Source: Candidatus Woesearchaeota archaeon (GTDB lineage: Archaea > Nanobdellota > Nanobdellia > Woesearchaeales > GW2011-AR4). From it: a stretch of 63,544 bases of DNA. Positions within the stretch are counted from its first letter, which is position 1. Each line of letters opens with the position of its first letter. Below the pieces are notes generated by a model. The model worked only from the letters and a program-made list of their open reading frames with translations, made no database searches and was not told the DNA's origin. Position numbers and translations under genes: made by a program. Below are positions 110-13,110 of this stretch, one piece after another. The stretch lies in assembly GCA_002688775.1 (NCBI GenBank), contig NZDH01000016.1:1-63544 (forward strand). The letters are read 5' to 3'.

Positions 110-358
110 TGAGTTTATAAATAAAGGCTTAATGTCTATACTTTATAGTGACAAAAACGAAAGGTTTAAATACTTGGACCATTTTGGAATTATCATGAAA
201 CGAGTTGGTTATCTTCATTGTGAGTAAAATTTTTTCTGATTTAAATAGTTCCAACTCCGAGAGTTATTCAATTTATAAATGCATATATAGTCGTACTTCT
301 ATTCATCATAGCTAATTTCTTGCGTTGTTTACACTAAGATCTTTTTTTATTTTTATAT

Positions 359-430
359 GGCAGCAGTATTTTAGTGGTAGAATACGAGACTGTGGCTCTT
401 GTGGCGCGAGTTCGATTCTCGCCTGCTGCC
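359..430 (+). tRNA. tRNA-His (anticodon GTG) with genomically encoded G-1
   Basis: Cloverleaf read by eye. Acceptor GCAGCAG (360-366) pairs with CTGCTGC (423-429). Anticodon stem CGAGA (385-389)/TCTTG (397-401). Loop CTGTGGC with GTG at 392-394. T arm GCGAG-TTCGATT-CTCGC (406-422). The extra G at 359 lies opposite C73 (430), the tRNA-His hallmark. Confidence 0.9.
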
Positions 431-466
431 CTTTAATATTATGGAGGAAAAACATGGAATTACCCA

Positions 467-1048
467 TTGGTTGTATTCATTGTACGTCCAAACAACAGAA
501 GTTTGGCGAATTACGTAGCTACAGCATTGAAATACCTAGGAACTAGTAAAGTTAAGAGATTTATTGACTCTAGGGGCGAAGATATACCTTACCTAGTAGA
601 TGAATTATCCCAAAATGGAACCAAAGTATATGGTCTAACTGGTAGGGATCTTTTTAAAGAATATAAGCTAACTAAATATAATTCTAAACTAAGTGTTCTT
701 AAAACCATTAATTGGGAAGATAAAAAAGCTCTTTTTGGCAAGCCTGCCTTGTGCCTCTTAGGGCCAAAAAACAAGAAATTTGAAGATTTACCAAAGAAAC
801 TAAGGGTTTGTATCAACATAAAATACAAAAATCTTGCAAAAAAATACCTAAATCAATTAGAAAGTAAAGGATATACTTTCGAAAGGAAGTATCTTGCTGG
901 ATCCACTGAAACAGCTTATTCTAACGGTCTGTCAGACCTTGTTATTGAAATTGTGTACACTGGATATTCTATCAATAAAGTAAATCTGGCAGTATATGAC
1001 AAAATCTTCGAAAGTGATTTTGTGGTTATAGGTGTTAAAAATGATTAA
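467..1048 (+). CDS. hisG: ATP phosphoribosyltransferase, short form (HisG-S)
   Basis: 193 aa. ...SRGEDIPYLVDE...VYGLTGRDLFKEY... resembles the HisG catalytic domains, and no C-terminal regulatory domain is present. TTG start, with no in-frame ATG upstream. First gene of the overlapping his operon. Confidence 0.8.
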   Translation: MVVFIVRPNNRSLANYVATALKYLGTSKVKRFIDSRGEDIPYLVDELSQNGTKVYGLTGRDLFKEYKLTKYNSKLSVLKTINWEDKKALFGKPALCLLGPKNKKFEDLPKKLRVCINIKYKNLAKKYLNQLESKGYTFERKYLAGSTETAYSNGLSDLVIEIVYTGYSINKVNLAVYDKIFESDFVVIGVKND

Positions 1049-2756
1049 GCCGAGAAAAGCAGTTTTGGAACTTGAAGAATACAAGCCACCAATTTCAGAT
1101 AGAAATGAGTACTTAAGATTAGATTTCAATGAAAATACTAGAGGCTGCTCTTCTCTAGTATCAAGGAAGATTAGATCAATCAGCAAAAGAAGTTTAGCTA
1201 CATATCCTGATTATAAAGAGCTTAGAACGAAACTATCAGAATACTGCAAAGCTAATGAAAGCGAAATAATAACGACAAATGGTGCAGATGAAGCGATAAA
1301 AACAATATTTGAAACTTACATTGAAAGAAATCAAGATGAAACTATAATTCCAGTTCCAACTTATGCACTCTTCAAATTTTATGCTCAACTAAGCGAAGCA
1401 GTTATTAAAGAAGTGGAGTACAATAATGATTTAAGTTTTCCTACAAAAAAAATTCTCAAATCGATTAATCGGGAGACTAAGATTATTGTTCTTGTTAATC
1501 CAAACAATCCAACAGGAACTTCAATTAACAGGAATGACATAATTAAAATCATTAAGAAAGCTCAAAAAAACAGCGCATTTGTGATAATTGATGAAGCTTA
1601 TTATCAATATTGCAGAATAACCTCAATACCCTTAATCAAGAAATATGATAATTTGTTTGTTCTCCAGACATTTTCAAAGGTATTTGGTCTTGCAGGATTG
1701 AGGCTAGGATATATATGCTCAAATAAGGGAAATATCAAATATCTTCAGAAGGTATTATCCCCTTATAGCGTTAATAGGGCTGCAATAGAAGGTGTAATGG
1801 CTGCGTTGCAGGATAAAGGGTTTGTTAAGAAGTATGTAAGTGAAGTAAATTGTAGCAAAAAAACTCTATACGATGCGTTGAATCTTCTAGGAATCGGGTT
1901 TTTTAAGAGCGATGCCAATTTTGTCCTGATAAGAATTGGAAATAAAGCAGATTATTTCTATCAAAAATTAAAGGATTTTTGTATATTGGTTAGAAATTTC
2001 TCCAAAGTTAAGCTTCTGCGGGGCTGCATTAGGATAACTATTGGTACAAGGAGTCAAATGAGTGAATTCATCAAAGCACTTACTTGCATAATAAAGGAAA
2101 TTAACCCCGTATTGATATTTGACATTGATGGTGTATTGGTAGATACCTCTAAATCTTATAGAATTGCAATAAAACAAACTTCTGAATATTTTACAAATGA
2201 ACAAACAGGGATGGCAGAAATTCAAAAATATAAAAACAAAGGCGGCTACAATAACGACTGGGACTTAACCGAAGCAATCATTACAAGCAAAGGGAAAAAG
2301 ATTACTAGAAAGAAAATTATTCAAAAATTTCAAAGTTATTATTCCAAACTTGCGAAATGTGAAAAATGGCTGCTTGATAAGCGCATACTAAAATTACTTT
2401 CTGCGAGATTTAATCTGGCTATAGTGACTGGGAGACCAAGAAATGAAGCATTATATGTTCTAAGAAAAAATAATGTCAAGAAATATTTTTCTGCTATAAT
2501 AGCTATGGAAGATTGTCTGCTTCAAAAACCTAGTCCTAGCGGTCTAGAAATAATTATGGAAAAATATGGAAAAAATGAAGCGTATTACTTTGGCGATGCT
2601 ATTGACGATATTAAAGCTGCAAACTTTGCTAAAATCAAAGCTGTTGGTGTTTTACCACCAGAAGACAAATCACCAAAATTAATGGAATTAATGAGGAAAA
2701 ACAGAGCAAAATGCATCATTAAGGATATTAACAGTGTCTTGGAGGCCATACAATGA
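1041..2756 (+). CDS. hisC: Histidinol-phosphate aminotransferase fused to a C-terminal HAD-superfamily phosphatase domain
   Basis: N-terminal class-II aminotransferase (LDFNENTRG..., PLP-lysine context FSKVFGLAGLRLGY). The C-terminal ~215 aa carry HAD motifs: FDIDGV (I), VTGRPR (II), QKPSP (III), GDAIDD (IV). The ATG at 1041 overlaps the hisG stop; the ORF track starts at GTG 1032. Confidence 0.85.
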   Translation: MIKPRKAVLELEEYKPPISDRNEYLRLDFNENTRGCSSLVSRKIRSISKRSLATYPDYKELRTKLSEYCKANESEIITTNGADEAIKTIFETYIERNQDETIIPVPTYALFKFYAQLSEAVIKEVEYNNDLSFPTKKILKSINRETKIIVLVNPNNPTGTSINRNDIIKIIKKAQKNSAFVIIDEAYYQYCRITSIPLIKKYDNLFVLQTFSKVFGLAGLRLGYICSNKGNIKYLQKVLSPYSVNRAAIEGVMAALQDKGFVKKYVSEVNCSKKTLYDALNLLGIGFFKSDANFVLIRIGNKADYFYQKLKDFCILVRNFSKVKLLRGCIRITIGTRSQMSEFIKALTCIIKEINPVLIFDIDGVLVDTSKSYRIAIKQTSEYFTNEQTGMAEIQKYKNKGGYNNDWDLTEAIITSKGKKITRKKIIQKFQSYYSKLAKCEKWLLDKRILKLLSARFNLAIVTGRPRNEALYVLRKNNVKKYFSAIIAMEDCLLQKPSPSGLEIIMEKYGKNEAYYFGDAIDDIKAANFAKIKAVGVLPPEDKSPKLMELMRKNRAKCIIKDINSVLEAIQ

Positions 2757-3346
2757 GAATTGCAAGAATAACCAGGATTACGAATGAAACAGAGATTAAG
2801 GCAGTCTTAAGAATAGATGGTAAAGGGAAGTTCGATATCAAAATACCTATTGGATTTCTTAAGCATATGCTCGAATCATTTGCAAAACATGGACTTTTTG
2901 ATATGAAGATTGAAGCTAAGGGTGATTTAGAAGTAGATCAGCACCATTTGGTTGAAGATTTAGGATTTGTACTTGGCCAAGCTTTCAAAAAATCCTTGGG
3001 AAACAAGAAAGGCATCAATAGGGCAGGTTATTTTATCTTTCCTATGGATGATGCGCTTGCTATTGCCGCTGTAGACGTATCTGGAAGACCTTATCTTAAG
3101 TTTATTTCAAAATTCAAGAGAAGGTTTTGCGGGGATTTAGATACAGACTTAATTGAAGATTTTTTTTACGGATTTTCAGTTGGTTTGGGGTGTAATATAG
3201 CGATCCAAGCCAAATATGGAAGGAGTGACCACCACAAAATTGAGGCAATTTTCAAAGCATTTGCAAAAGCAATGAAAATGGCATGTTCGAAAGATAAACG
3301 TGCTGCCAAGGAAATGCCGTCAACAAAAGGATTAATAGAAAAATGA
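2753..3346 (+). CDS. hisB: Imidazoleglycerol-phosphate dehydratase (monofunctional)
   Basis: 197 aa. TNETEI...DQHHLVEDLG...DHHKIEAIFKAFA are IGPD signatures. ATGA overlap with hisC. No phosphatase domain. Confidence 0.9.
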   Translation: MRIARITRITNETEIKAVLRIDGKGKFDIKIPIGFLKHMLESFAKHGLFDMKIEAKGDLEVDQHHLVEDLGFVLGQAFKKSLGNKKGINRAGYFIFPMDDALAIAAVDVSGRPYLKFISKFKRRFCGDLDTDLIEDFFYGFSVGLGCNIAIQAKYGRSDHHKIEAIFKAFAKAMKMACSKDKRAAKEMPSTKGLIEK

Positions 3347-3924
3347 TAGCGATAATAGATTATGGAGCAGGGAATTTAAGAAGTGTGAAAAACGCACTAG
3401 ATTGTCTTCAAGTAGATAGCAGAATAACAAACAAAGCTACAGATATTCTCAAGGCTGATAGACTAATATTGCCTGGAGATGGTTCTTTCGGCTTTATGAT
3501 GGATAGTTTAAGAAAGAATAAACTAGAAGCACCTATAAAGAAATCAATTCAGAATGGTAAGCCCTTTTTAGGCATATGCTTGGGTTTACAAGCATTATTT
3601 GAAGAAAGTGAAGAGAATTCAAATGTAAAAGGATTTTGCATATTCAAAGGGAAGGTTGTAAGATTTAGGAAAGGTAAAGTTCCGCAAATCGGTTGGAATA
3701 ATATTATTTCAAAGAAAAAAGGCATTTTTAGAGATGGTTATGTGTATTTTGTAAATTCTTACTATGTTGTTCCTGAAGACCGATCAATAGTAGCAACAAC
3801 TACTGATTACTATGGAAATTTTGTCAGTTCAATAAAACAAGACAACATAACAGCTATGCAATTTCACCCTGAAAAAAGTGGGGATTTTGGAATAGAACTC
3901 TTAAGGAGATGGTTAAAATGTTAG
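3343..3924 (+). CDS. hisH: Imidazole glycerol phosphate synthase, glutamine amidotransferase subunit
   Basis: 193 aa. [14 protein letters not shown]..., GICLGLQ (nucleophile Cys), FHPEKS. ATGA overlap with hisB. Confidence 0.9.
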
Positions 3925-4673
3925 CAAAAAGAATAATTCCTTGTTTGGATGTAAAAGATGGCAAAGTCATAAAGGGAAAAAACTTTGTTAATCTTGAGTA
4001 TGCTGGCGATCCAGTTGAATTAGCTAGAAGGTATAATGATGACAATGCTGATGAGCTTGTTTTTCTTGACATCACTGCTTCATATGAAAACAGAAAAATA
4101 ATGATAGAAATAGTGAAAGAAGTAGCAAAGCAGCTTTTTATCCCATTTACAGTGGGAGGTGGAATCAACAGCATAGAGGACATAAGGGAATTGTTAAATG
4201 CTGGTGCAGATAAGGTCTCAATCAATACAGCAGCTGTAAAAAATCCAGTATTAATTAAGGAAGCTTCAGAAAAATTTGGGAGCCAGTGTATTGTTGTTGC
4301 AATAGATGTTAAGAAAGAGAATAGTGGCTGGAAGGTTTACATTAAAGGTGGCAAAGAAACTGCAAGTCTTGATGCTTTGGAGTGGGCTAAAAAAGTAGAG
4401 AAATTAGGGGCTGGAGAGATTTTGTTGACATCAATAGACAGAGACGGAACAAAAAAAGGTTATGACCTTAAATTAACCAAGCTTATTTCTGAATCTGTCA
4501 GCATTCCTGTAATTGCCTCTGGCGGCGCAGGTGATTTGACAAGTTTAAGTGATGTATTTAACAAAGGCAAGGCTGATGCTGCTTTAGCAGCTTCTATCTT
4601 TCACTATAACAAATATTCAGTTAGCGAAGTAAAGAATTATCTAAAAACAAACAATGTAGAGGTAAGAAGATGA
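3918..4673 (+). CDS. hisF: Imidazole glycerol phosphate synthase, cyclase subunit
   Basis: [20 protein letters not shown]... is the canonical HisF N-terminus. The ORF track starts 9 nt earlier at 3909. Overlaps the hisH stop. Confidence 0.92.
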
Positions 4674-5893
4674 TAATTCCAAGCATAGATTTGATGGATG
4701 GAAAAGCAGTGCAGCTTAAGCAAGGAAAAGAAAAAGTGCTTGAAAGGGAGAATGTATTAGAGTTAGCTTTAGAATTTAGTAAATATGGAGAAATAGCTGT
4801 AATTGATTTAGATGCGGCCCTTGGTAAAGGTAACAATATAGGTTTAATTAAGGAAATTTGCAAGATTGCAGATTGCAAAGTTGGAGGGGGAATAAGAACA
4901 ATAGAAAAGGCAAATGGGATATTACAGGCAGGAGCTAAGAAAATAATTATTGGAACAAAAGCAACAATTGGTTTTTTGAAGCAATTGCCTAAAGAGAGAG
5001 TTATTGTCGCAATTGATACTAAAGGAGATTATGTTGTCAATAAAGGATGGACTCAAAAAACTAAGGATAAACCTGAACAATTGATAAAAAAGCTAGAATC
5101 TTATTGCTATGGCTTCTTATTTACGAATGTGGATAAAGAAGGTTTGATGAAAGGTATTGATATTGATAGAATAAAACAATTGAGAAAATTAACAAATAAT
5201 AACCTAACAGTTGCTGGAGGGATTTCATCCATTGGCAATATTAAGAAATTAGAGAATTTAGGTGTTGATTCACAATTAGGAATGGCTTTATATACTGGAA
5301 AATTGAACCTAACTAAGGCTTACATGTCTTTATTGGATTTTAATAAAAATAAAGGCTTAATCCCAACAATTGTTCAGGACGATAAAAATCAAGTATTAAT
5401 GCTTGCATATTCTTCAAGAAAATCCCTTTTAGAAACTTTCAGAACTGGAAAGGCATGCTATTATAGCAGATCTAGGAAAAAACTATGGAAAAAAGGTGAA
5501 ACTTCGGGGAATTATCAGGCTATTTTGAATGTAAAATATGATTGTGACAGAGATTCGTTATTATTTACAGTTAAACAGAAAAATTTTGCCTGTCACTCTG
5601 GAAGATATTCTTGTTTTGAAGATAGAAAATTTAGCTTCGAAGAATTGTTTGATGCAATCAATGATAGAATTAGCAACCCAAGAAAAGAGTCGTATACATC
5701 AAAAATAGCTGCAGATGAAAGTAAGATTAAGGCTAAAATCAGAGAAGAATGCTCAGAATTATTAAATTATACAAATAAAGATAACCTGATTTGGGAAATT
5801 TCAGATTTATTTTATTTTATATCCATTTTAATGGCAAAAAAAGGTATAAGTCTAGCAGACATTAAGAACGAATTGTGGAGAAGAAGAAAATGA
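4670..5893 (+). CDS. hisA: Triple fusion: ProFAR isomerase (HisA), PR-AMP cyclohydrolase (HisI) and PR-ATP pyrophosphohydrolase (HisE)
   Basis: 407 aa. The N-terminus [19 protein letters not shown] is HisA-like. The middle LIPTIVQDD...[11 protein letters not shown]...DCDRDSLLF...[10 protein letters not shown] is HisI. The C-terminus SYTSKI...[10 protein letters not shown]...EISDLFYF is HisE. ATGA overlaps at both ends. Confidence 0.85.
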
Positions 5894-7086
5894 GACTTGT
5901 TGAAAAAATAATTGAAGACGTGAAAAAGAAACAAGATGCTGCAGTTAGATTTTACACTAAAAAATTTGACAAAATTAATTTAGATGGATTTTCAGTAACA
6001 AAAAAGGAAATAAAAAGAGCTTACGACTTAGTTGATGAAGAGACAATAAAAGCTTTGAGATTCGTCAAAAGAAATATTGAATTATTTGCAAAGAGGCAAA
6101 TGCAACAATTCAAGGATTTTGAAGTAAAAAAAGACGGAATTGTGCTAGGCCAAAAAGTTATTCCTATAGAAAGAATTGGCGTTTATATTCCAGGGGGAAA
6201 CTACCCATTACCCTCTACAGCATTGATGTGTATTGTAACTGCAAGAATTTCAGGGGTTAAAGAGATTATAGCATGCTCACCTAAGATTAAACCTGAAACT
6301 ATAGTTGCAGCTGATATTGCAGGTGCAGATAAGATATTTAGAGTTGGTGGAGCTCAAGCAATTGCTGCAATGGCTTATGGTACTGAAACAATTCCCAAGG
6401 TTGACAAAATTGTAGGCCCTGGCAATATTTATGTGACTGCTGCAAAAAAAGCGGTTTATGGAGATTGTGGTATAGACTTTTTAGCAGGTCCAAGTGAAAT
6501 AATGATAATTGCGGATGAATCAGCAGATTATAGGCTAGTGGCAATTGATTTATTGGCTCAGTTAGAGCACGATGTAAACTCAAAGGCGTTTTTATTGACA
6601 AATTCAAAAAAACTGATTAAAAAAGTGAAAAATGAGATAGATAAGCAATTGAAAGGTTTAAGTACAAATCTCATTATTAAGAAGTCAATAAAAAATTTAG
6701 TAATTACTTTAGTCAAAAATATTGAAGATTCAATAGATATTGCAAATAAAAAATCTCCAGAGCACTTGGAACTGCAATTAAGAGATCCTGAGAAATATAC
6801 TGATAAATTAAAGAATTATGGATCTTTGTTTATTGGTAAATTTTCAGCAGTTGTATTTGGTGATTATTGCAGTGGTACTAATCACGTATTGCCCACTGGA
6901 GGAAGTGCCAAGTATGCGGGTGGATTAAGTGTAAAAGATTTTGTTAAGCTGCAGACTTATCAAAAAATTAATTTGAAAGGTGCTAAGAAATTAGGTCCAA
7001 CTGCATCAAAATTAAGCAGGATAGAAGGTTTATCTGCCCACAATAAGTCTGTTGAAATGAGACTAATCAATAATTATATAAACTAA
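5890..7086 (+). CDS. hisD: Histidinol dehydrogenase
   Basis: GVYIPGG.YPLPSTALM, VGPGNIYV, QLEHD, SPEHLEL and GDY.SGTNHVLPT motifs. The ATG at 5890 forms an ATGA overlap with the preceding gene; the ORF track gives GTG 5875. Confidence 0.9.
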   Translation: MRLVEKIIEDVKKKQDAAVRFYTKKFDKINLDGFSVTKKEIKRAYDLVDEETIKALRFVKRNIELFAKRQMQQFKDFEVKKDGIVLGQKVIPIERIGVYIPGGNYPLPSTALMCIVTARISGVKEIIACSPKIKPETIVAADIAGADKIFRVGGAQAIAAMAYGTETIPKVDKIVGPGNIYVTAAKKAVYGDCGIDFLAGPSEIMIIADESADYRLVAIDLLAQLEHDVNSKAFLLTNSKKLIKKVKNEIDKQLKGLSTNLIIKKSIKNLVITLVKNIEDSIDIANKKSPEHLELQLRDPEKYTDKLKNYGSLFIGKFSAVVFGDYCSGTNHVLPTGGSAKYAGGLSVKDFVKLQTYQKINLKGAKKLGPTASKLSRIEGLSAHNKSVEMRLINNYIN

Positions 7087-7105
7087 AATCCAAATAGAAC
7101 TCAAA

Positions 7106-8374
7106 ATGGACTTACAACTACCAAAAGGAACAAGGGATATTGCACCTGAAGAGAAGATTGCCAAGGATAAGATAGTTAATACTCTGAAAGAAGTGTTTGA
7201 ACTGTATGGTTATGCTCCTTTGGAAACGCCTTTGCTTGAGAAATATGATGTTTTGTCTTCGAAATATGCCGGCGGCAATGAGATTTTGAAGGAAACATTT
7301 AGGTTGAAAGATCAAGGAGATAGAGAACTTGGGTTAAGATATGATTTAACAGTTCCAATGTGCAGATTTGTTGGCATGAATCCTGCAATGAAGATGCCTT
7401 TCAAGCGTTACCAAATTGGGGAAGTTTTCAGGGATGGCCCTGTAGGTTCTTCTAGATACAGGCAGTTCACCCAATGCGATGTTGATGTTGTCGGCTCATC
7501 TTCAATGTCTGCTGATGCTGAAATAATGGCCTTGATTTATTCTGCTTTTAAAAAACTGAATCTTGATGTTGTTATCAAAGTAAACAACAGGAAATTGCTT
7601 AATGATGTTCTTGACTATTGCGGTATTGAAAAAAACAAACAAGAAGCTGTAATCCTTTCGATTGATAAATTAGAGAAAATGGGCATCGATGTTGTCAAAG
7701 GTGAATTGAAAAAACAAGATATAGACGACAAAACAATCGGCAAGATAATCGATATCCTGAACATAAAGGGGAATAATGAAGAAAAAATAGCGCAAATAAA
7801 GAATATGATAAAAGAATCTGAAGGTTTGGAGGAGATACAGCAATTATTGAAATTCCTGAAAAATATAAACTTTGAAGCTGATTTTGATGTTTCTTTAGCA
7901 AGAGGATTGTCTTATTACACAGGGACTGTTGCTGAAACGTTCATCAAAAATAGCAATGTAAAAAGTTCTGTCTGCGCCGGCGGAAGATATGACAACATGA
8001 TTGGAGCATTCTTAGGCAAAGGAAATTTTCCGGCAGTCGGTGTCAGCTTTGGTGTTGACAGGATCTACGATGCCATTAAACAAAAAAATAAGCAGAAAAC
8101 CAATACAAAAATTTATGTCATTCCGATCAAGACATTAGACGAAAGCATGAAAATAGCTCAAAAATTAAGAGATGCTGGAATAAATACAGATATTGATTCT
8201 ATGGATAGGGGTCCTAGCAAGAATCTTGAGTTTGCTAATTCTTTAGGCATTCCATACGTTGTTTTTGTCGGAAAAAAAGAACTGGAAGATAATAAACTGA
8301 AGTTAAGGGACATGAAGAGCGGGAAGGAAGAGTTAATGAGTATTGATGATGTTATAAAAAAATTAAAATCATAA
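7106..8374 (+). CDS. hisS: Histidyl-tRNA synthetase (full length, with anticodon-binding domain)
   Basis: 422 aa. PKGTRD, LRYDLTVP, FRDGPVGSSRYRQF, GGRYD, AVGVSFGVDR, plus a C-terminal anticodon-binding domain (IYVIPI...VFVGKKELE). Confidence 0.9.
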   Translation: MDLQLPKGTRDIAPEEKIAKDKIVNTLKEVFELYGYAPLETPLLEKYDVLSSKYAGGNEILKETFRLKDQGDRELGLRYDLTVPMCRFVGMNPAMKMPFKRYQIGEVFRDGPVGSSRYRQFTQCDVDVVGSSSMSADAEIMALIYSAFKKLNLDVVIKVNNRKLLNDVLDYCGIEKNKQEAVILSIDKLEKMGIDVVKGELKKQDIDDKTIGKIIDILNIKGNNEEKIAQIKNMIKESEGLEEIQQLLKFLKNINFEADFDVSLARGLSYYTGTVAETFIKNSNVKSSVCAGGRYDNMIGAFLGKGNFPAVGVSFGVDRIYDAIKQKNKQKTNTKIYVIPIKTLDESMKIAQKLRDAGINTDIDSMDRGPSKNLEFANSLGIPYVVFVGKKELEDNKLKLRDMKSGKEELMSIDDVIKKLKS

Positions 8375-9259
8375 TTTTGTTAATATTGTAACTTCCCCTT
8401 CACCATCAATCAAAACAGAATGTTCTGCCTGCGATACAATGCCATTGTTAACCTCAACTAAAGGAGGGTAATTATGGATAATTTCCAATTGGGTTAATTC
8501 TTTTATTGCAAAGTTTGTTTTTGCTCCAAATCTTTGGGTTAGCCATCTTTTTGCAAATGGCAAGTTTTCATATGTATCTATTTGCTTTAAGATTTCTCTT
8601 GTTATAGGGCTTCTGACAGGCTTCCTGTTTTTCATCATGAATACAGTTGGCAGGCCTTTTTCTCCAACAACTCCTGAGCCGGTTGTTGCGAACGGTTCAA
8701 CTGCAAAAGTCATGTCTTTTTTTAAAGTTGTCTTGTCTCCTGTGTCAAAATTCGGGATTGTCGGTTTTGTATGTATGTTATACAGATCCAGACCGTGGCC
8801 TGAAAGGTTTCTTACAGGATTAAAGCCGTAACCTGAGATTGTGTCATTGATAACTTTTCCAATTTGACCTAGTTCAGTCCCAACATCCACTATTTTTAAT
8901 GCTTCTTCAAGGGCTTTTTGCGCTGCTTTGACTAAATCAGCGTATTTTCCTGATAAATCTATTGTATATGCAGTGTCACCGATTGCTCCATTAATGTGAA
9001 CTCCTAAGTCCAAGCTTATAACTTGCTCATCAAATACTGTTTTGTCATCATCTTCAACGCAGAAATGCGCAGCAATTTGATCGCAGGAAAACTGAACAGG
9101 AAATGCAGGCTTTCCACCTAACTCAAAGATCTTCTTTTCAATCTTTTCAGTTGAATCAAGAATTGAATTGCCCTTCTTTATCAAAGATTTTCCAAATTCC
9201 AATACTTCTGCAGAGATCCTTCCTGCTTTGATGTAGTTTTGCTTGGTTTCTTCGTCCAT
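8369..9259 (-). CDS. map: Methionine aminopeptidase, type 2 (archaeal)
   Basis: 296 aa. FPVQFSCDQIAAHF, DLGVHINGAIGDTAYT, NLSGHG, FAVEPFAT and QAEHSVL metal-ligand contexts. Confidence 0.9.
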   Translation of the reverse strand: MDEETKQNYIKAGRISAEVLEFGKSLIKKGNSILDSTEKIEKKIFELGGKPAFPVQFSCDQIAAHFCVEDDDKTVFDEQVISLDLGVHINGAIGDTAYTIDLSGKYADLVKAAQKALEEALKIVDVGTELGQIGKVINDTISGYGFNPVRNLSGHGLDLYNIHTKPTIPNFDTGDKTTLKKDMTFAVEPFATTGSGVVGEKGLPTVFMMKNRKPVRSPITREILKQIDTYENLPFAKRWLTQRFGAKTNFAIKELTQLEIIHNYPPLVEVNNGIVSQAEHSVLIDGEGEVTILTKL

Positions 9260-9345
9260 AGAAAAGAGTTTACAATGGAATTATTTAAAGGTTGTGCAGA
9301 CTAAAAACGACATTTATTTAAAGTACTTATTAATTTAATATATCC

Positions 9346-9774
9346 ATGGTTTATGCAGTCCAAAGAATAATGGTAAAAAAGGTCGTGACCTGTGATGTTA
9401 AGGATACTATACAATCTGTTGCGAGAACTATGCGCAAGAAAAAGATTGGGTGCTTAATTGTCCTAAAGGGTAAAAATCCTGTTGGAATTGTCACTGAGAG
9501 AGATGTGGCCTGGGAGGGTGTGGCTAATAATTTAAATTGCTGCATAATAAATGTAAAAGAAATCATGAGTTCGCCTTTGAAATCAATCAGCCCTGACGCG
9601 GATATCTATTATGCGGATGCTGTAATGGAAAAGAACAACATCAAAAGATTGGCTGTCATGAAGGGGAAAAAGCTTGTCGGAATCATAACCCAAAGTGATA
9701 TGATTAAGTATTTTGTGAAGCAAAGACAGGCACTTGCCCTTGACAAATTCAAGAAAGGCATTAAATCTGTATAA
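9346..9774 (+). CDS. CBS-domain pair protein
   Basis: 142 aa with two CBS repeats (...GIVTERDV... and ...GIITQSDMIKY...). Confidence 0.8.
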   Translation: MVYAVQRIMVKKVVTCDVKDTIQSVARTMRKKKIGCLIVLKGKNPVGIVTERDVAWEGVANNLNCCIINVKEIMSSPLKSISPDADIYYADAVMEKNNIKRLAVMKGKKLVGIITQSDMIKYFVKQRQALALDKFKKGIKSV

Positions 9775-9796
9775 TTAATCTAAACCGGGTGAAATT

Positions 9797-10351
9797 TTGG
9801 TAAAACTAGACTTAGAGTCAATAAAAAATAATGATCTGGTATTTATTGTTGTTCCAAGCGAATTAGTGTAGCAGACAAATTTTCAAGTTTTAAAGTACAT
9901 TTCCGACACAAAAAAACCAGTATTTGTGTACACAACTTTTACCAAACCCTATATGACTGTAACCAAGATATTGGAAAGAAACAACATCAAAACTGATAAG
10001 ATGTTCTTTATTGATTGTGCAACACCTGTAGCCGGGAGGACGGAAATGCATGGAACAAGCAAAAGTCTTTTTTGCCAGCCGCAATCACTTACTAATATTT
10101 CTATCGCTATCGGACATGCTCTTGAAAGCATACCTAAAGGCAATGATAAAGTGCTTATATTAGACTCGCTAACTACACTAATGCTATACAACAGTGAGAA
10201 GAATGTAATTCAATTTATACACAGCCTTAGCGGAAAGGCCAGGGCATGGAATGTTAAATCCATCATTTATAGTGTAGTTGAAGATACGGACAAGAAAACT
10301 ATTTCAGAAATCTCTCAATTCTGCGATACTTGCATAAGGATAAAGGAGTAG
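9797..10351 (+). pseudogene. RecA/KaiC-superfamily-like (Walker-A-less) protein interrupted by an in-frame TAG at 9869-9871. The intact ORF is 9926-10351.
   Basis: The same frame reads (L)VKLDLESIKNNDLVFIVVPSELV*QTNFQVLKYISDTKKPVFVYTTFTKPY... continuously across the stop. The C-terminal part (VLILDSLTTLMLYN...) looks like KaiC/RadB-type domains. Confidence 0.5.
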
Positions 10352-10395
10352 GTTACTTATAAAGATTTAAAAACTACCTCAAATATCCAGATATT

Positions 10396-13110
10396 ATGAG
10401 AAAGAATTGGATGCTAAGATTTGGTTTGACTGTTATAATCCTGCTGATATTCTCTATAACCAGTTTAGCCAGGATATATACTAATTTCTTATGGTTTGAT
10501 GCACTTGGTTTTAAGGAGATTTTTTTAATAAGCCTGTTTTCTAAAATTAACTTGTTTGCTGCAGCATTTTTTATATTCTTTTTGTTTGCTATCATTAATC
10601 TATGGATATCATCAAAAATCACCGGGAAAGACAAGTTTCCTTTCAAATTTAAGCTGTACATCACTTTAATAATATCTGTATTGGTTGGTCTTGTTGTCTC
10701 TTCAGGATGGTTTAAGATTCTTCAGTATCTTAAGCAAACACCATTTAATTTAACTGATCCAATTTTTGCAAAAGATGTGTCGTTCTATATATTTACACTT
10801 CCTTTTTATTCATTTATCCTGGGTTTTTTGATGAGCTGTGTTGTTCTCACGATAATCCTAGTCCTGTTAGACTATCTAAAATCATATTTTGGCCAATTTG
10901 TTAAGCAGGAATTTATTAAACCAAACCCGCTGGATTCCGCAACGACTGCCAGGCCAGTATTCGATTTCAAGATATTGTTGTCAAAGACCAAAGCAATAGC
11001 ACACCTGGGGATATTATCTTCGATATTTTTTATATTGGTGGCCGGTAAACATTATCTTTCAAGATTTTCAATAATGTACTCCCAACAAGGAATTGTTGTA
11101 GGGGCTGGTTACTCTGATGTTGTTGCGTATCTGCCAATAATCAAGATCCTGATGGTGCTGGCCGTTGTTGTGGCAATAGCGCTTCTGGTCTGGGTATTTT
11201 ATTTATCAAGAAAATTAAGAAAAAGGCACATCTTGTTTTATGTTGTATTCATTTACATTTTGTTTGGATTTGTCGGGCCAACTATAATTCCTGGTATTGT
11301 GCAGTCCCTGAAAGTCTCGCCTAATGAGATAAACCTTGAAAAGCCTTATATTGAGGACAACATACGATTTACCAGGATAGCTTATGGCCTGGAAAATGTT
11401 GAGGAGAAAGATTTTTCTGCCGATGAAAAACTGACTTCTGCAATCCTGGGCACAGCTTCTGAAACCATAGATAATATAAGAATACTGGATTGGAGGCCGT
11501 TAACTAAAACATACAAGCAAACGCAGGAGATAAGGCTGTATTATGACCTGGCGGGCATAGACATTGACAGGTATGAAATTGATGGAAAATATACTCAAGT
11601 AATGTTAGCTCCAAGAGAATTGGACCAAAACCAGATAACTGAGAATGCAAAAACCTGGGTAAACCTGCACATGGTATACACTCATGGTTTTGGAGTGGTG
11701 ATGAGCCCTGTTAACAAGGTCACAAAGCAAGGCTTGCCTGACTATCTTATCCAGGACATCCCACCAAAGTATGCTACTGATGAGGTGGGTTTGAAAATTT
11801 CGAAACCACGAGTATATTATGGAGAAACAGACAATGATTTCGTGCTGGTCAACACAAAAACCAAAGAGTTTGATTTTCCCAAAGGGAATACAAATGAATA
11901 TATCAATTATGATGGAAAGGGGGGTATTTTGCTGGATACTTTCCTGAAAAAATTGTCAATGGCCATAAAGTTTGCAGACGTTAAAATCTTATTGTCTTCT
12001 GATATAACACAAGAGACTAAAATAATGTTTGACAGGGATATTATTGAGAGAATATCAAAAATCACGCCATTTATCAGTTTGGACAGCGATCCTTATGTGG
12101 TAATCTACAACGGCCGTCTGGTATGGATTGCGGATGCATACACTATTTCAGGAAACTTTCCTTATTCTGAGAAGCTTAGCAATATAAATTATATAAGGAA
12201 CTCCTTAAAAATTGTTGTTGATGCTTATGACGGCAAGGTAACTTACTATATTACTGATACTTCTGGTCCTTTAATGGATACCTATGCTAAAATATTCCCT
12301 AACAAGTTTAAGAAGATAAGCAGCATGCCGGAAGGTTTGAGAAAGCACATAAGGTATCCAGTAGACTTATTCAATATACAGACCCATATTTACAGCACAT
12401 ATCACATGGAAGATGTCAAGGTCTTTTACAATAAGGAAGATGCCTGGCAAATTCCGAGTGAAGTTTACGGTGTCGGGCGAAAAGTTAAGGTAGATCCTTA
12501 TTATATAATCATGAAACTTCCCGGTGAGAATAAGGAAGAATTTGTGCTGATGACCTCTTTCTCCCCAATAAAGAAAGACAACATGGTGGCATGGATGGCT
12601 GCACGGTCTGATGGGGACGATTATGGAAAACTTGTAGTATATAAATTTCCAAAAGACAAGCTGGTTTATGGTCCCCTCCAGATTGAAGCAAGGATCGACC
12701 AGGATTCAGAGATTTCACAGCAGCTTACTTTGTGGAGCCAGCAAGGCTCACGGGTTACAAGGGGGAATCTGCTTGTAATACCAATAATGGACAGCATTCT
12801 TTACATAGAACCACTTTACATAGAAGCAGAAACCGGCCAATTACCGGAGCTAAAACGAGTTTTGGTATCTGATGGTATCAATGTTGTGATGGAAGAGAAT
12901 TTAGGTGAAGCACTTGAAGTTTTGTTTGGAAAATCCAAGAGAATAGTTGTTGCTGAAAAAGGAGTGGAAAAATCTGCAAAAGAGCTTATCGAATCTGCGC
13001 AGGACTATTACAATGACATTGAAGAATCAATGCGTAAAGGTGATTGGGAAGGTATTGGTTCTAATTTGGATAAATTGGGCAGTGTTCTAGAGAGTTTGAA
13101 AGAATCTTAG
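10396..13110 (+). CDS. UPF0182-family large membrane protein
   Basis: 904 aa. N-terminal multi-TM region with YTNFLWFDALGF, followed by a large soluble domain. Size and architecture fit UPF0182/COG1615. Confidence 0.7.
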   Translation: MRKNWMLRFGLTVIILLIFSITSLARIYTNFLWFDALGFKEIFLISLFSKINLFAAAFFIFFLFAIINLWISSKITGKDKFPFKFKLYITLIISVLVGLVVSSGWFKILQYLKQTPFNLTDPIFAKDVSFYIFTLPFYSFILGFLMSCVVLTIILVLLDYLKSYFGQFVKQEFIKPNPLDSATTARPVFDFKILLSKTKAIAHLGILSSIFFILVAGKHYLSRFSIMYSQQGIVVGAGYSDVVAYLPIIKILMVLAVVVAIALLVWVFYLSRKLRKRHILFYVVFIYILFGFVGPTIIPGIVQSLKVSPNEINLEKPYIEDNIRFTRIAYGLENVEEKDFSADEKLTSAILGTASETIDNIRILDWRPLTKTYKQTQEIRLYYDLAGIDIDRYEIDGKYTQVMLAPRELDQNQITENAKTWVNLHMVYTHGFGVVMSPVNKVTKQGLPDYLIQDIPPKYATDEVGLKISKPRVYYGETDNDFVLVNTKTKEFDFPKGNTNEYINYDGKGGILLDTFLKKLSMAIKFADVKILLSSDITQETKIMFDRDIIERISKITPFISLDSDPYVVIYNGRLVWIADAYTISGNFPYSEKLSNINYIRNSLKIVVDAYDGKVTYYITDTSGPLMDTYAKIFPNKFKKISSMPEGLRKHIRYPVDLFNIQTHIYSTYHMEDVKVFYNKEDAWQIPSEVYGVGRKVKVDPYYIIMKLPGENKEEFVLMTSFSPIKKDNMVAWMAARSDGDDYGKLVVYKFPKDKLVYGPLQIEARIDQDSEISQQLTLWSQQGSRVTRGNLLVIPIMDSILYIEPLYIEAETGQLPELKRVLVSDGINVVMEENLGEALEVLFGKSKRIVVAEKGVEKSAKELIESAQDYYNDIEESMRKGDWEGIGSNLDKLGSVLESLKES

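Follow-up and report, generated by a model that had tools for sequence, protein, structure and literature searches.

A HisC aminotransferase fused to a predicted histidinol-phosphate phosphatase of the HAD superfamily in a woesearchaeal his operon

Which enzyme converts histidinol phosphate to histidinol in an archaeon whose his operon carries a HisB with a dehydratase domain only? The operon lies in a stretch of 63,544 nucleotides of a Candidatus Woesearchaeota genome (assembly GCA_002688775.1, contig NZDH01000016.1; here denoted the window), and its hisC gene, encoding histidinol-phosphate aminotransferase, continues in frame into a HAD-type domain. We propose that the product of the fused gene is very probably a bifunctional enzyme that carries out histidine biosynthesis steps 7 and 8, with the HAD domain as the predicted histidinol-phosphate phosphatase (HolPase). 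Since the gene joins HisC to a HAD domain related to a proven archaeal HolPase, the "missing" step is almost certainly encoded here. An earlier note on this DNA had described a hisC product of 574 amino acids with a C-terminal HAD domain and four motifs, all of which we found where it had placed them, and had inferred that the domain is the HolPase, an inference now supported by homology to a proven family, by specificity residues, by the gene order hisC-HAD-hisB and by fusions to HisB, HisD and HisG.

The fused open reading frame (ORF) and its parts are listed in Table 1. The true start is probably the ATG at 1041, giving a protein of 571 amino acids, the form present in our protein collection (P0122). 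The N-terminal part is a class I/II aminotransferase domain (Pfam Aminotran_1_2, residues 29-350) that passes the curated cut-off of the hisC model TIGR01141 (300.4 versus 276.55 bits). Its pyridoxal phosphate (PLP) lysine, K216, lies within SKVFG (nt 1677-1679), and both S215 and K216 are invariant in all 65 aligned fusions. The C-terminal part matches Pfam HAD_2 at residues 361-540 (E 2e-24) and is a member of the HAD superfamily, with all four catalytic motifs (DxD, T/S, K, GDxxxD) intact. D364 and D366 are invariant in the 65 fusions, and T466, K499, D522 and D526 are invariant or nearly so.

A single ORF of this kind might come from adjacent hisC and HAD genes merged by a sequencing or assembly error, and in three genomes of the same order (G239, G337 and G366) the two genes are indeed separate and adjacent; G366 is unpublished, and its case rests on that genome alone. 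Against this, genomes G254, G245 and G222 of the same order gave full-length fused matches. A search limited to proteins of 315-1005 amino acids returned 268 proteins with a HAD domain of the window type, most of them of about 571 amino acids with an aminotransferase domain in front, and proteins of this type are named "histidinol-phosphate transaminase" of Woesearchaeota, Nanoarchaeota, Aenigmarchaeota or KSB1 bacteria. Close fused relatives share 59-66% identity in the HAD domain, the nearest being Woesearchaeota or Nanoarchaeota by name, and the junction is modelled with high confidence as continuous secondary structure. Each of the 65 aligned fusions matches both TIGR01141 and TIGR01548, the latter at E <= 1e-20 and as the only HAD-type family among the matches listed. 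The fused gene is not an assembly or frameshift artefact, and we give the merging of two genes by error next to no credence.

Searched exhaustively, 1.84 billion cluster representatives gave 128 matches at E <= 1e-30. We classified 153 representatives of 50%-identity clusters with a near-complete HAD domain by their N-terminal extension: 75 carry an extension of at least 280 amino acids, 62 are standalone and 16 are probably truncated, although part of the standalone calls could be gene-calling artefacts. On a quick maximum likelihood tree of the HAD domain, fused and standalone forms are intermixed; parsimony counts 35 changes and the well-supported branches require at least 13, indicating that fusion and fission occurred many times and that the fusion is easily gained or lost and not required. 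Of 250 genomes sampled from the phylum, only 13 gave a match of any kind to the fused protein, among them the three fused and the three split cases given above. Longer chains were seen among metagenome proteins: HisC-HAD-IGPD, where IGPD is imidazoleglycerol-phosphate dehydratase (about 755 amino acids; P0302 and P0355), HisG-HisC-HAD (about 765 amino acids; P0174, P0229, P0245 and P0366), and a HisC-HAD-HisD protein of 1046 amino acids that spans three consecutive steps (P0382). We found no description of a HisC-HolPase fusion in the searchable literature on TIGR01548, fused hisC/HAD and nmHisN, and the fusion itself appears to be undescribed, while the phosphatase family and its function have been known since 2024.

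In that year Nmar_1556 of Nitrosopumilus maritimus (nmHisN), a HAD protein whose gene is flanked there by hisC and hisB, was characterized as a specific Mg-dependent HolPase with kcat/KM of ~1e4 per M per s (Kinateder 2024, Protein Sci, PMC10804674). The enzyme did not hydrolyse nine other phosphoesters, and was inactive on PLP, phosphoserine and the sugar phosphates tested (PMC10804674). The view of the earlier note that the HolPase is unassigned in many archaea is therefore partly out of date, as is the framing of a "missing archaeal HolPase"; besides nmHisN, euryarchaeal relatives have been predicted to be HolPases.

In our comparisons nmHisN was represented by thaumarchaeal orthologs, picked by hisC-HAD-hisB synteny and by a motif spacing that matches the numbering of the paper. 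These orthologs lie in the order hisD-hisC-HAD-hisB-hisH-hisA (loci L120-L124, for example L123, and also L082), and the spacing in L122 reproduces the nmHisN residue numbering exactly. A profile built from 66 relatives of the window HAD domain could be aligned to these proteins along the entire length; hhalign gave a probability of 99.9% and an E value of 7e-33 over 226 aligned columns. We noticed that locus L082/L094 (JACDCB010000184.1), titled Nitrosopumilus sp., has a HAD gene with 84-91% protein identity to Nitrosocosmicus/Nitrososphaeraceae and only 32-39% identity to Nitrosopumilus-like single-contig genomes.

The best NCBIfam model for the domain is TIGR01548 (HAD-SF-IA-hyp1), with 113.9 bits for the whole protein and 117.7 bits for the domain alone, about 50 bits above the next HAD model though below the curated cut-off, as taken up further on. 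No other sequence of the genome is TIGR01548-like (114.1 bits for the fused domain versus 27 for the next best), and NCBI calls standalone relatives of 43-47% identity "TIGR01548 family HAD-type hydrolase". Of the HisB-N type models, TIGR01656 reached 23.5 bits against a cut-off of 84.15, and TIGR01261 was not matched. Seven loci (L056, L062, L069, L071, L080, L081 and L093) were left out of the family, their genes being ordinary HAD_2 proteins without SY(R/D) and GG-x-NND.

The neighbourhood of the domain was followed in a his-gene survey of the 80 genome loci retrieved with the HAD domain. Its coding region stands directly between hisC and hisB in 28 of the 80, usually within a complete his operon. 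By title these 28 loci comprise Acidobacteriota, Myxococcota, Gemmatimonadota, Planctomycetota, Aminicenantes, Gastranaerophilales and Microgenomates among the bacteria, and Micrarchaeota and Iainarchaeum among the archaea. The gene order and the further fusions are hard to reconcile with any role but the step between HisC and HisD. TIGR01548 is also matched above its cut-off by one protein each in Haloferax volcanii and Synechococcus elongatus. Transposon insertion in the Haloferax HAD hydrolase gene HVO_0431, which may be the TIGR01548 gene, leads to histidine auxotrophy (PMC4300041, PMC8305020).

Alanine scanning of nmHisN yielded a specificity fingerprint of Y24, D25, K56 and E64, with I28 and I52 as accessory residues (PMC10804674). 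In our alignment, nmHisN I20/Y24/D25/I28/I52/K56/E64 map to T372/Y376/R377/I380/I397/K401/D409 of the fused protein. Y376 is conserved in 62 of the 65 fusions. Position 401 is K in 61 and R in the other four, R being accepted as in toHisN, the proven enzyme of Thermococcus onnurineus, and D409, where D is likewise accepted as in toHisN, is conserved in all 65. Position 377 departs from nmHisN D25, with R in 53 fusions and D in three. The mapping thus places the window domain in the Y-R-K-D state, that is, the cluster II/delta-proteobacterial type. The euryarchaeal and delta-proteobacterial homologs have Arg at position 25, the related euryarchaeal proteins were predicted to be HolPases, and HolPase function in "cluster II" (Euryarchaeota) and in the delta-proteobacterial proteins was considered likely but less certain (PMC10804674).

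The window domain and nmHisN have in common the HAD-IA core, the four catalytic motifs, profile homology over the full length and the position between hisC and hisB, as well as the cap motifs SY-x2-I, K-x2-GG-x-N and F-x3-Y, with Y24, K56, I28 and I52 kept. They differ in that identity is only 26-30%, that nmHisN is encoded by a separate gene whereas the window domain is covalently fused to HisC, and that the latter has Arg for Asp25 and Asp for Glu64. The fingerprint state is the same as in cluster II and in the clusters from delta-proteobacteria, which are predicted HolPases and for which the paper makes no mention of a HisC fusion (PMC10804674). toHisN (Lee et al. 2008, cited in PMC10804674) resembles the window domain in its cap, which is relatively short, and in the Asp that stands at the E64 position, but has Asp25 and Arg56. 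HisB-N of the E. coli type, too, is a HAD HolPase, joined to an enzyme next to it in the pathway, so that there is precedent for the logic of a HolPase fused to the enzyme of an adjacent step; it differs in belonging to the capless HAD-IIIA subfamily, in its partner (IGPD, step 6) and in its N-terminal position.

Two further groups of sequences were noticed in these comparisons. In the PDB, the family profile matches the sequence of entry 6IAH chain A far better than any other (E 5e-27); the entry bears the name "Hydrolase" and nothing more, and it is missing from the best structural matches listed. Its sequence has SYDEA, R-x2-G and GDD, the Y-D-R-D state reported for toHisN, and because of this fingerprint and the profile match it may be an unrecognized HolPase structure. 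In addition, long-cap members of about 350 amino acids from Spirochaetes (L045), an uncultured bacterium (L048), Thermodesulfobacteriota (L051) and Bathyarchaeia (L055) have the core motifs of the short-cap proteins (SY+R/K/P, GG-x-NNDW), which makes them intermediate between nmHisN and the window type. No his genes adjoin those of L045, L048 and L051, whereas the gene of L055 comes last in a his cluster, after hisIE; the L045 ORF runs on into a long C-terminal extension (691 amino acids).

Several observations weigh against the HAD domain being a HolPase. TIGR01548, against which the earlier note had proposed to place the domain, is its best match, but the 114-118 bits obtained stay under the curated cut-off of 140.2 bits. 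The Arg in place of D25 was said to put "the HolPase function into question" for cluster II, and a D25A exchange cut the efficiency of nmHisN by ~220-fold (PMC10804674). For the Arg25-type subgroup, the fused protein included, the HolPase role is a predicted one. The cap departs from the large nmHisN/toHisN type: by alignment it is ~100 residues shorter than in the thaumarchaeal proteins, so that substrate binding may differ, and the model has one cap insertion with four helices (21-33, 39-48, 54-64 and 71-88 of the domain) versus nine in nmHisN and seven in toHisN. A Synechococcus elongatus histidinol-phosphatase candidate, which may belong to another family, is reported to be dispensable (GapMind 2020). 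The genome (1.04 Mb, 19 contigs) is only 73% complete, and a PHP or other HolPase gene could therefore lie on the missing DNA. Finally, it has one IMPase-family gene (G000:C7:32515-33267) whose best NCBIfam model is nominally the HisN model TIGR02067.

Some of these points could be combined into a reading in which the HAD domain acts on another phosphoester, such as a sugar phosphate, phosphoglycolate or a substrate of PLP handling, while the HolPase is the IMPase-family protein on contig C7 or is encoded in the missing 27%. Generic HAD-IA models (phosphoglycolate phosphatase, beta-phosphoglucomutase) do match the domain, weakly, and its structural neighbours found with Foldseek and VIA-align are HAD-IA C1-cap enzymes of many different substrates whose scores form a plateau (Z 21-24, 14-23% identity), which is uninformative on specificity. 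The IMPase-family protein, however, scores 196.7 bits with TIGR02067, far under the cut-off of 275.15. HisN-type enzymes have GD[CF]Y-x-Y at motif 5 and no Gly at motif 6 position 219, and motifs 5 and 6 serve to tell them from the SuhB/IMPase type (Kulis-Horn 2017); the C7 protein has RNLGSAIYG and WDIAAG, the SuhB/IMPase type with Gly (positions mapped by eye). Its gene neighbours encode a metallo-beta-lactamase-fold protein and a PfkB-like kinase, with no his genes. As a rival HolPase it is weak. The HAD gene, in turn, keeps its fixed place between hisC and hisB from phylum to phylum, fusions join its product to HisB, HisD and HisG as well, and PLP, phosphoserine and the sugar phosphates tested were among the compounds that nmHisN left intact. 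Action on another phosphoester thus seems improbable to us, and we keep to the HAD domain as the HolPase.

Other candidates were sought in the operon and in the whole assembly. The earlier note had read hisB as a dehydratase-only protein and the operon as free of PHP- and HisN-type phosphatases, and both points were borne out: hisB consists of the IGPD domain alone (Pfam 33-174; NF002111 249 bits versus a cut-off of 231), and neither a PHP nor an IMPase gene occurs among the genes from hisG to hisS. The genome, at 73% completeness, yielded no PHP domain. On contig C17, a HisB-N-like HAD-IIIA domain was rejected as HolPase, since it is GmhB-like and fused to a heptose-1-phosphate adenylyltransferase; also rejected were the remaining HAD genes, a beta-phosphoglucomutase-like pair on C2 and C18, one gene on C17, a TIGR02253-type gene on C9 and a phosphoserine phosphatase-like gene on C3. 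The check for another dedicated HolPase, proposed in the earlier note, therefore gave no better candidate in this assembly. The C17 fusion (G000:C17:17181-18227; L009:922-1968), of 349 amino acids, joins an adenylyltransferase of the RfaE-domain-II type to the GmhB-like HAD-IIIA phosphatase and suggests ADP-heptose-type sugar activation in this DPANN archaeon.

In the proposed mechanism, the PLP-dependent HisC domain (Lys216) would convert imidazole-acetol phosphate and glutamate to L-histidinol phosphate, and the HAD-IA domain would hydrolyse this to L-histidinol and phosphate by a Mg-dependent phospho-aspartyl mechanism. Asp364 would be the nucleophile that forms the phospho-enzyme intermediate and Asp366 the acid/base; Thr466 and Lys499 are expected to bind the phosphate, Asp522 and Asp526 the metal, and the cap residues Tyr376, Arg377, Lys401 and Asp409 would recognize the substrate. 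HisD, encoded downstream, would then oxidize histidinol. Fusion would guarantee 1:1 expression and proximity of the two activities. The substrate of the HAD domain and any kinetic benefit of the fusion, through proximity or channelling, are what we infer.

The models suggest a rigid, fixed two-domain unit. The HAD domain is predicted as a Rossmann-like core with a four-helix cap (pLDDT 96.9), the full-length AlphaFold model has pLDDT 95.4 and pTM 0.88, and the last HisC helix (340-357) leads almost straight into strand beta-1 of the HAD domain (360-363). With the HAD domain as the HolPase, it is possible that the fusion, beyond co-expression and 1:1 stoichiometry, also channels histidinol phosphate between the sites, as the earlier note had considered. 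The very short linker, the confidently fixed arrangement of the domains, the retention of the fusion in about half of the nearby clusters of the family and the existence of longer chains that include HisD or HisB all fit a kinetic role of this sort. On the HAD tree, however, the fused proteins lie scattered among standalone ones, and that the fusion has been lost so often speaks against an essential role of channelling; we regard such a kinetic role as rather doubtful.

The fused gene lies between hisG and hisB in an operon of the order hisG, hisC-HAD, hisB, hisH, hisF, hisA-IE, hisD and hisS (Table 1). The 407-amino-acid product of 4670-5893 unites HisA, HisI (PRA-CH) and HisE (PRA-PH), parts that are adjacent in locus L018. 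HisG is of the short form, and no hisZ was seen. The full-length hisS beside the operon is the sole HisRS-like sequence of the genome, where it occurs twice because of the C7/C11 duplication only; hisS adjoins his operons in other archaeal loci too (L018, L033 and L050). As to that duplication, contig C7 matches the window at 7078-12000 with 99.96% identity and at 1-109 with 97%, and between these flanks (G000:C7:7437-8435; L125:1418-2436) it has one GT2 glycosyltransferase gene of 309 amino acids in place of tRNA-His and hisG to hisD (window 110-7077). The his operon has the look of an insert that varies between strains, and the cause could be the binning of two strains as one or an effect of the assembly. 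The identical beta-phosphoglucomutase-family HAD genes at G000:C2:50982-51641 and C18:19484-20143 are a second sign of assembly redundancy.

Table 1. Coordinates, on the window, of the his operon and of the parts of the fused hisC-HAD gene.
Feature	Position	Strand	Remarks
tRNA-His (GUG)	360..431	+	directly upstream of the operon
hisG, short form, 193 aa	467..1048	+	
Fused hisC-HAD gene	1032..2756	+	574 aa from GTG 1032; overlaps hisG at its 5' end and hisB at its 3' end
HisC domain (histidinol-phosphate aminotransferase)	1032..2096	+	residues 1-355
Junction EINPV	2097..2111	+	linker of only 2-5 residues between HisC and HAD
HAD-IA phosphatase domain, short helical C1 cap	2097..2753	+	residues 356-574; proposed histidinol-phosphate phosphatase
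HAD motif I FDIDGV	2118..2135	+	residues 363-368; D364 nucleophile, D366 acid/base (predicted)
Cap residues Y376-R377	2157..2162	+	counterpart of nmHisN Y24-D25
Cap motif K401-x2-GG-Y-N-N-D409	2232..2258	+	K401 = nmHisN K56; D409 = nmHisN E64
HAD motif II TGRPR	2427..2441	+	residues 466-470; T466
HAD motif III QKPSP	2523..2537	+	residues 498-502; K499
HAD motif IV GDAIDD	2592..2609	+	residues 521-526; D522, D526
hisB, 197 aa, dehydratase only (imidazoleglycerol-phosphate dehydratase)	2753..3346	+	without phosphatase domain
hisH	3343-3924	+	
hisF	3909-4673	+	
hisA-hisI-hisE fusion	4670-5893	+	
hisD	5875-7086	+	
hisS, full-length histidyl-tRNA synthetase	7106..8374	+	after hisD

A complete histidine pathway is uncommon in a DPANN archaeon. 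Beyond this organism, hundreds of database entries named only "histidinol-phosphate transaminase" are probably bifunctional, and the fused protein offers a convenient single construct for both activities and for possible channelling. The HolPase is still the step most often "missing" from automated reconstructions of amino-acid biosynthesis; in GapMind 2026 hisN is absent in 20% of prototrophs, and the archaeal enzyme of 2024 is not cited there. The HisC-HAD, HisC-HAD-HisB and HisC-HAD-HisD chains are a natural Rosetta stone for the function of the Arg25-type clade and, with the gene order, they lend sequence-independent support to a HolPase role for this subgroup, which the 2024 paper left in doubt. 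Only tentatively do we extend this to the proposal that the entire TIGR01548 clade with Arg25 and a short cap supplies the HolPase in many lineages in which hisN is "missing" and that the fused enzyme, as a fixed two-site unit, passes histidinol phosphate directly from its transaminase to its phosphatase site. If true, the lineages served would include DPANN and other archaea, probably the haloarchaea among them, as well as Acidobacteriota, Myxococcota, Gemmatimonadota, Planctomycetota, some bacteria of the Candidate Phyla Radiation (CPR) and Melainabacteria, and the assignment would extend the HolPase to many bacterial and archaeal phyla.

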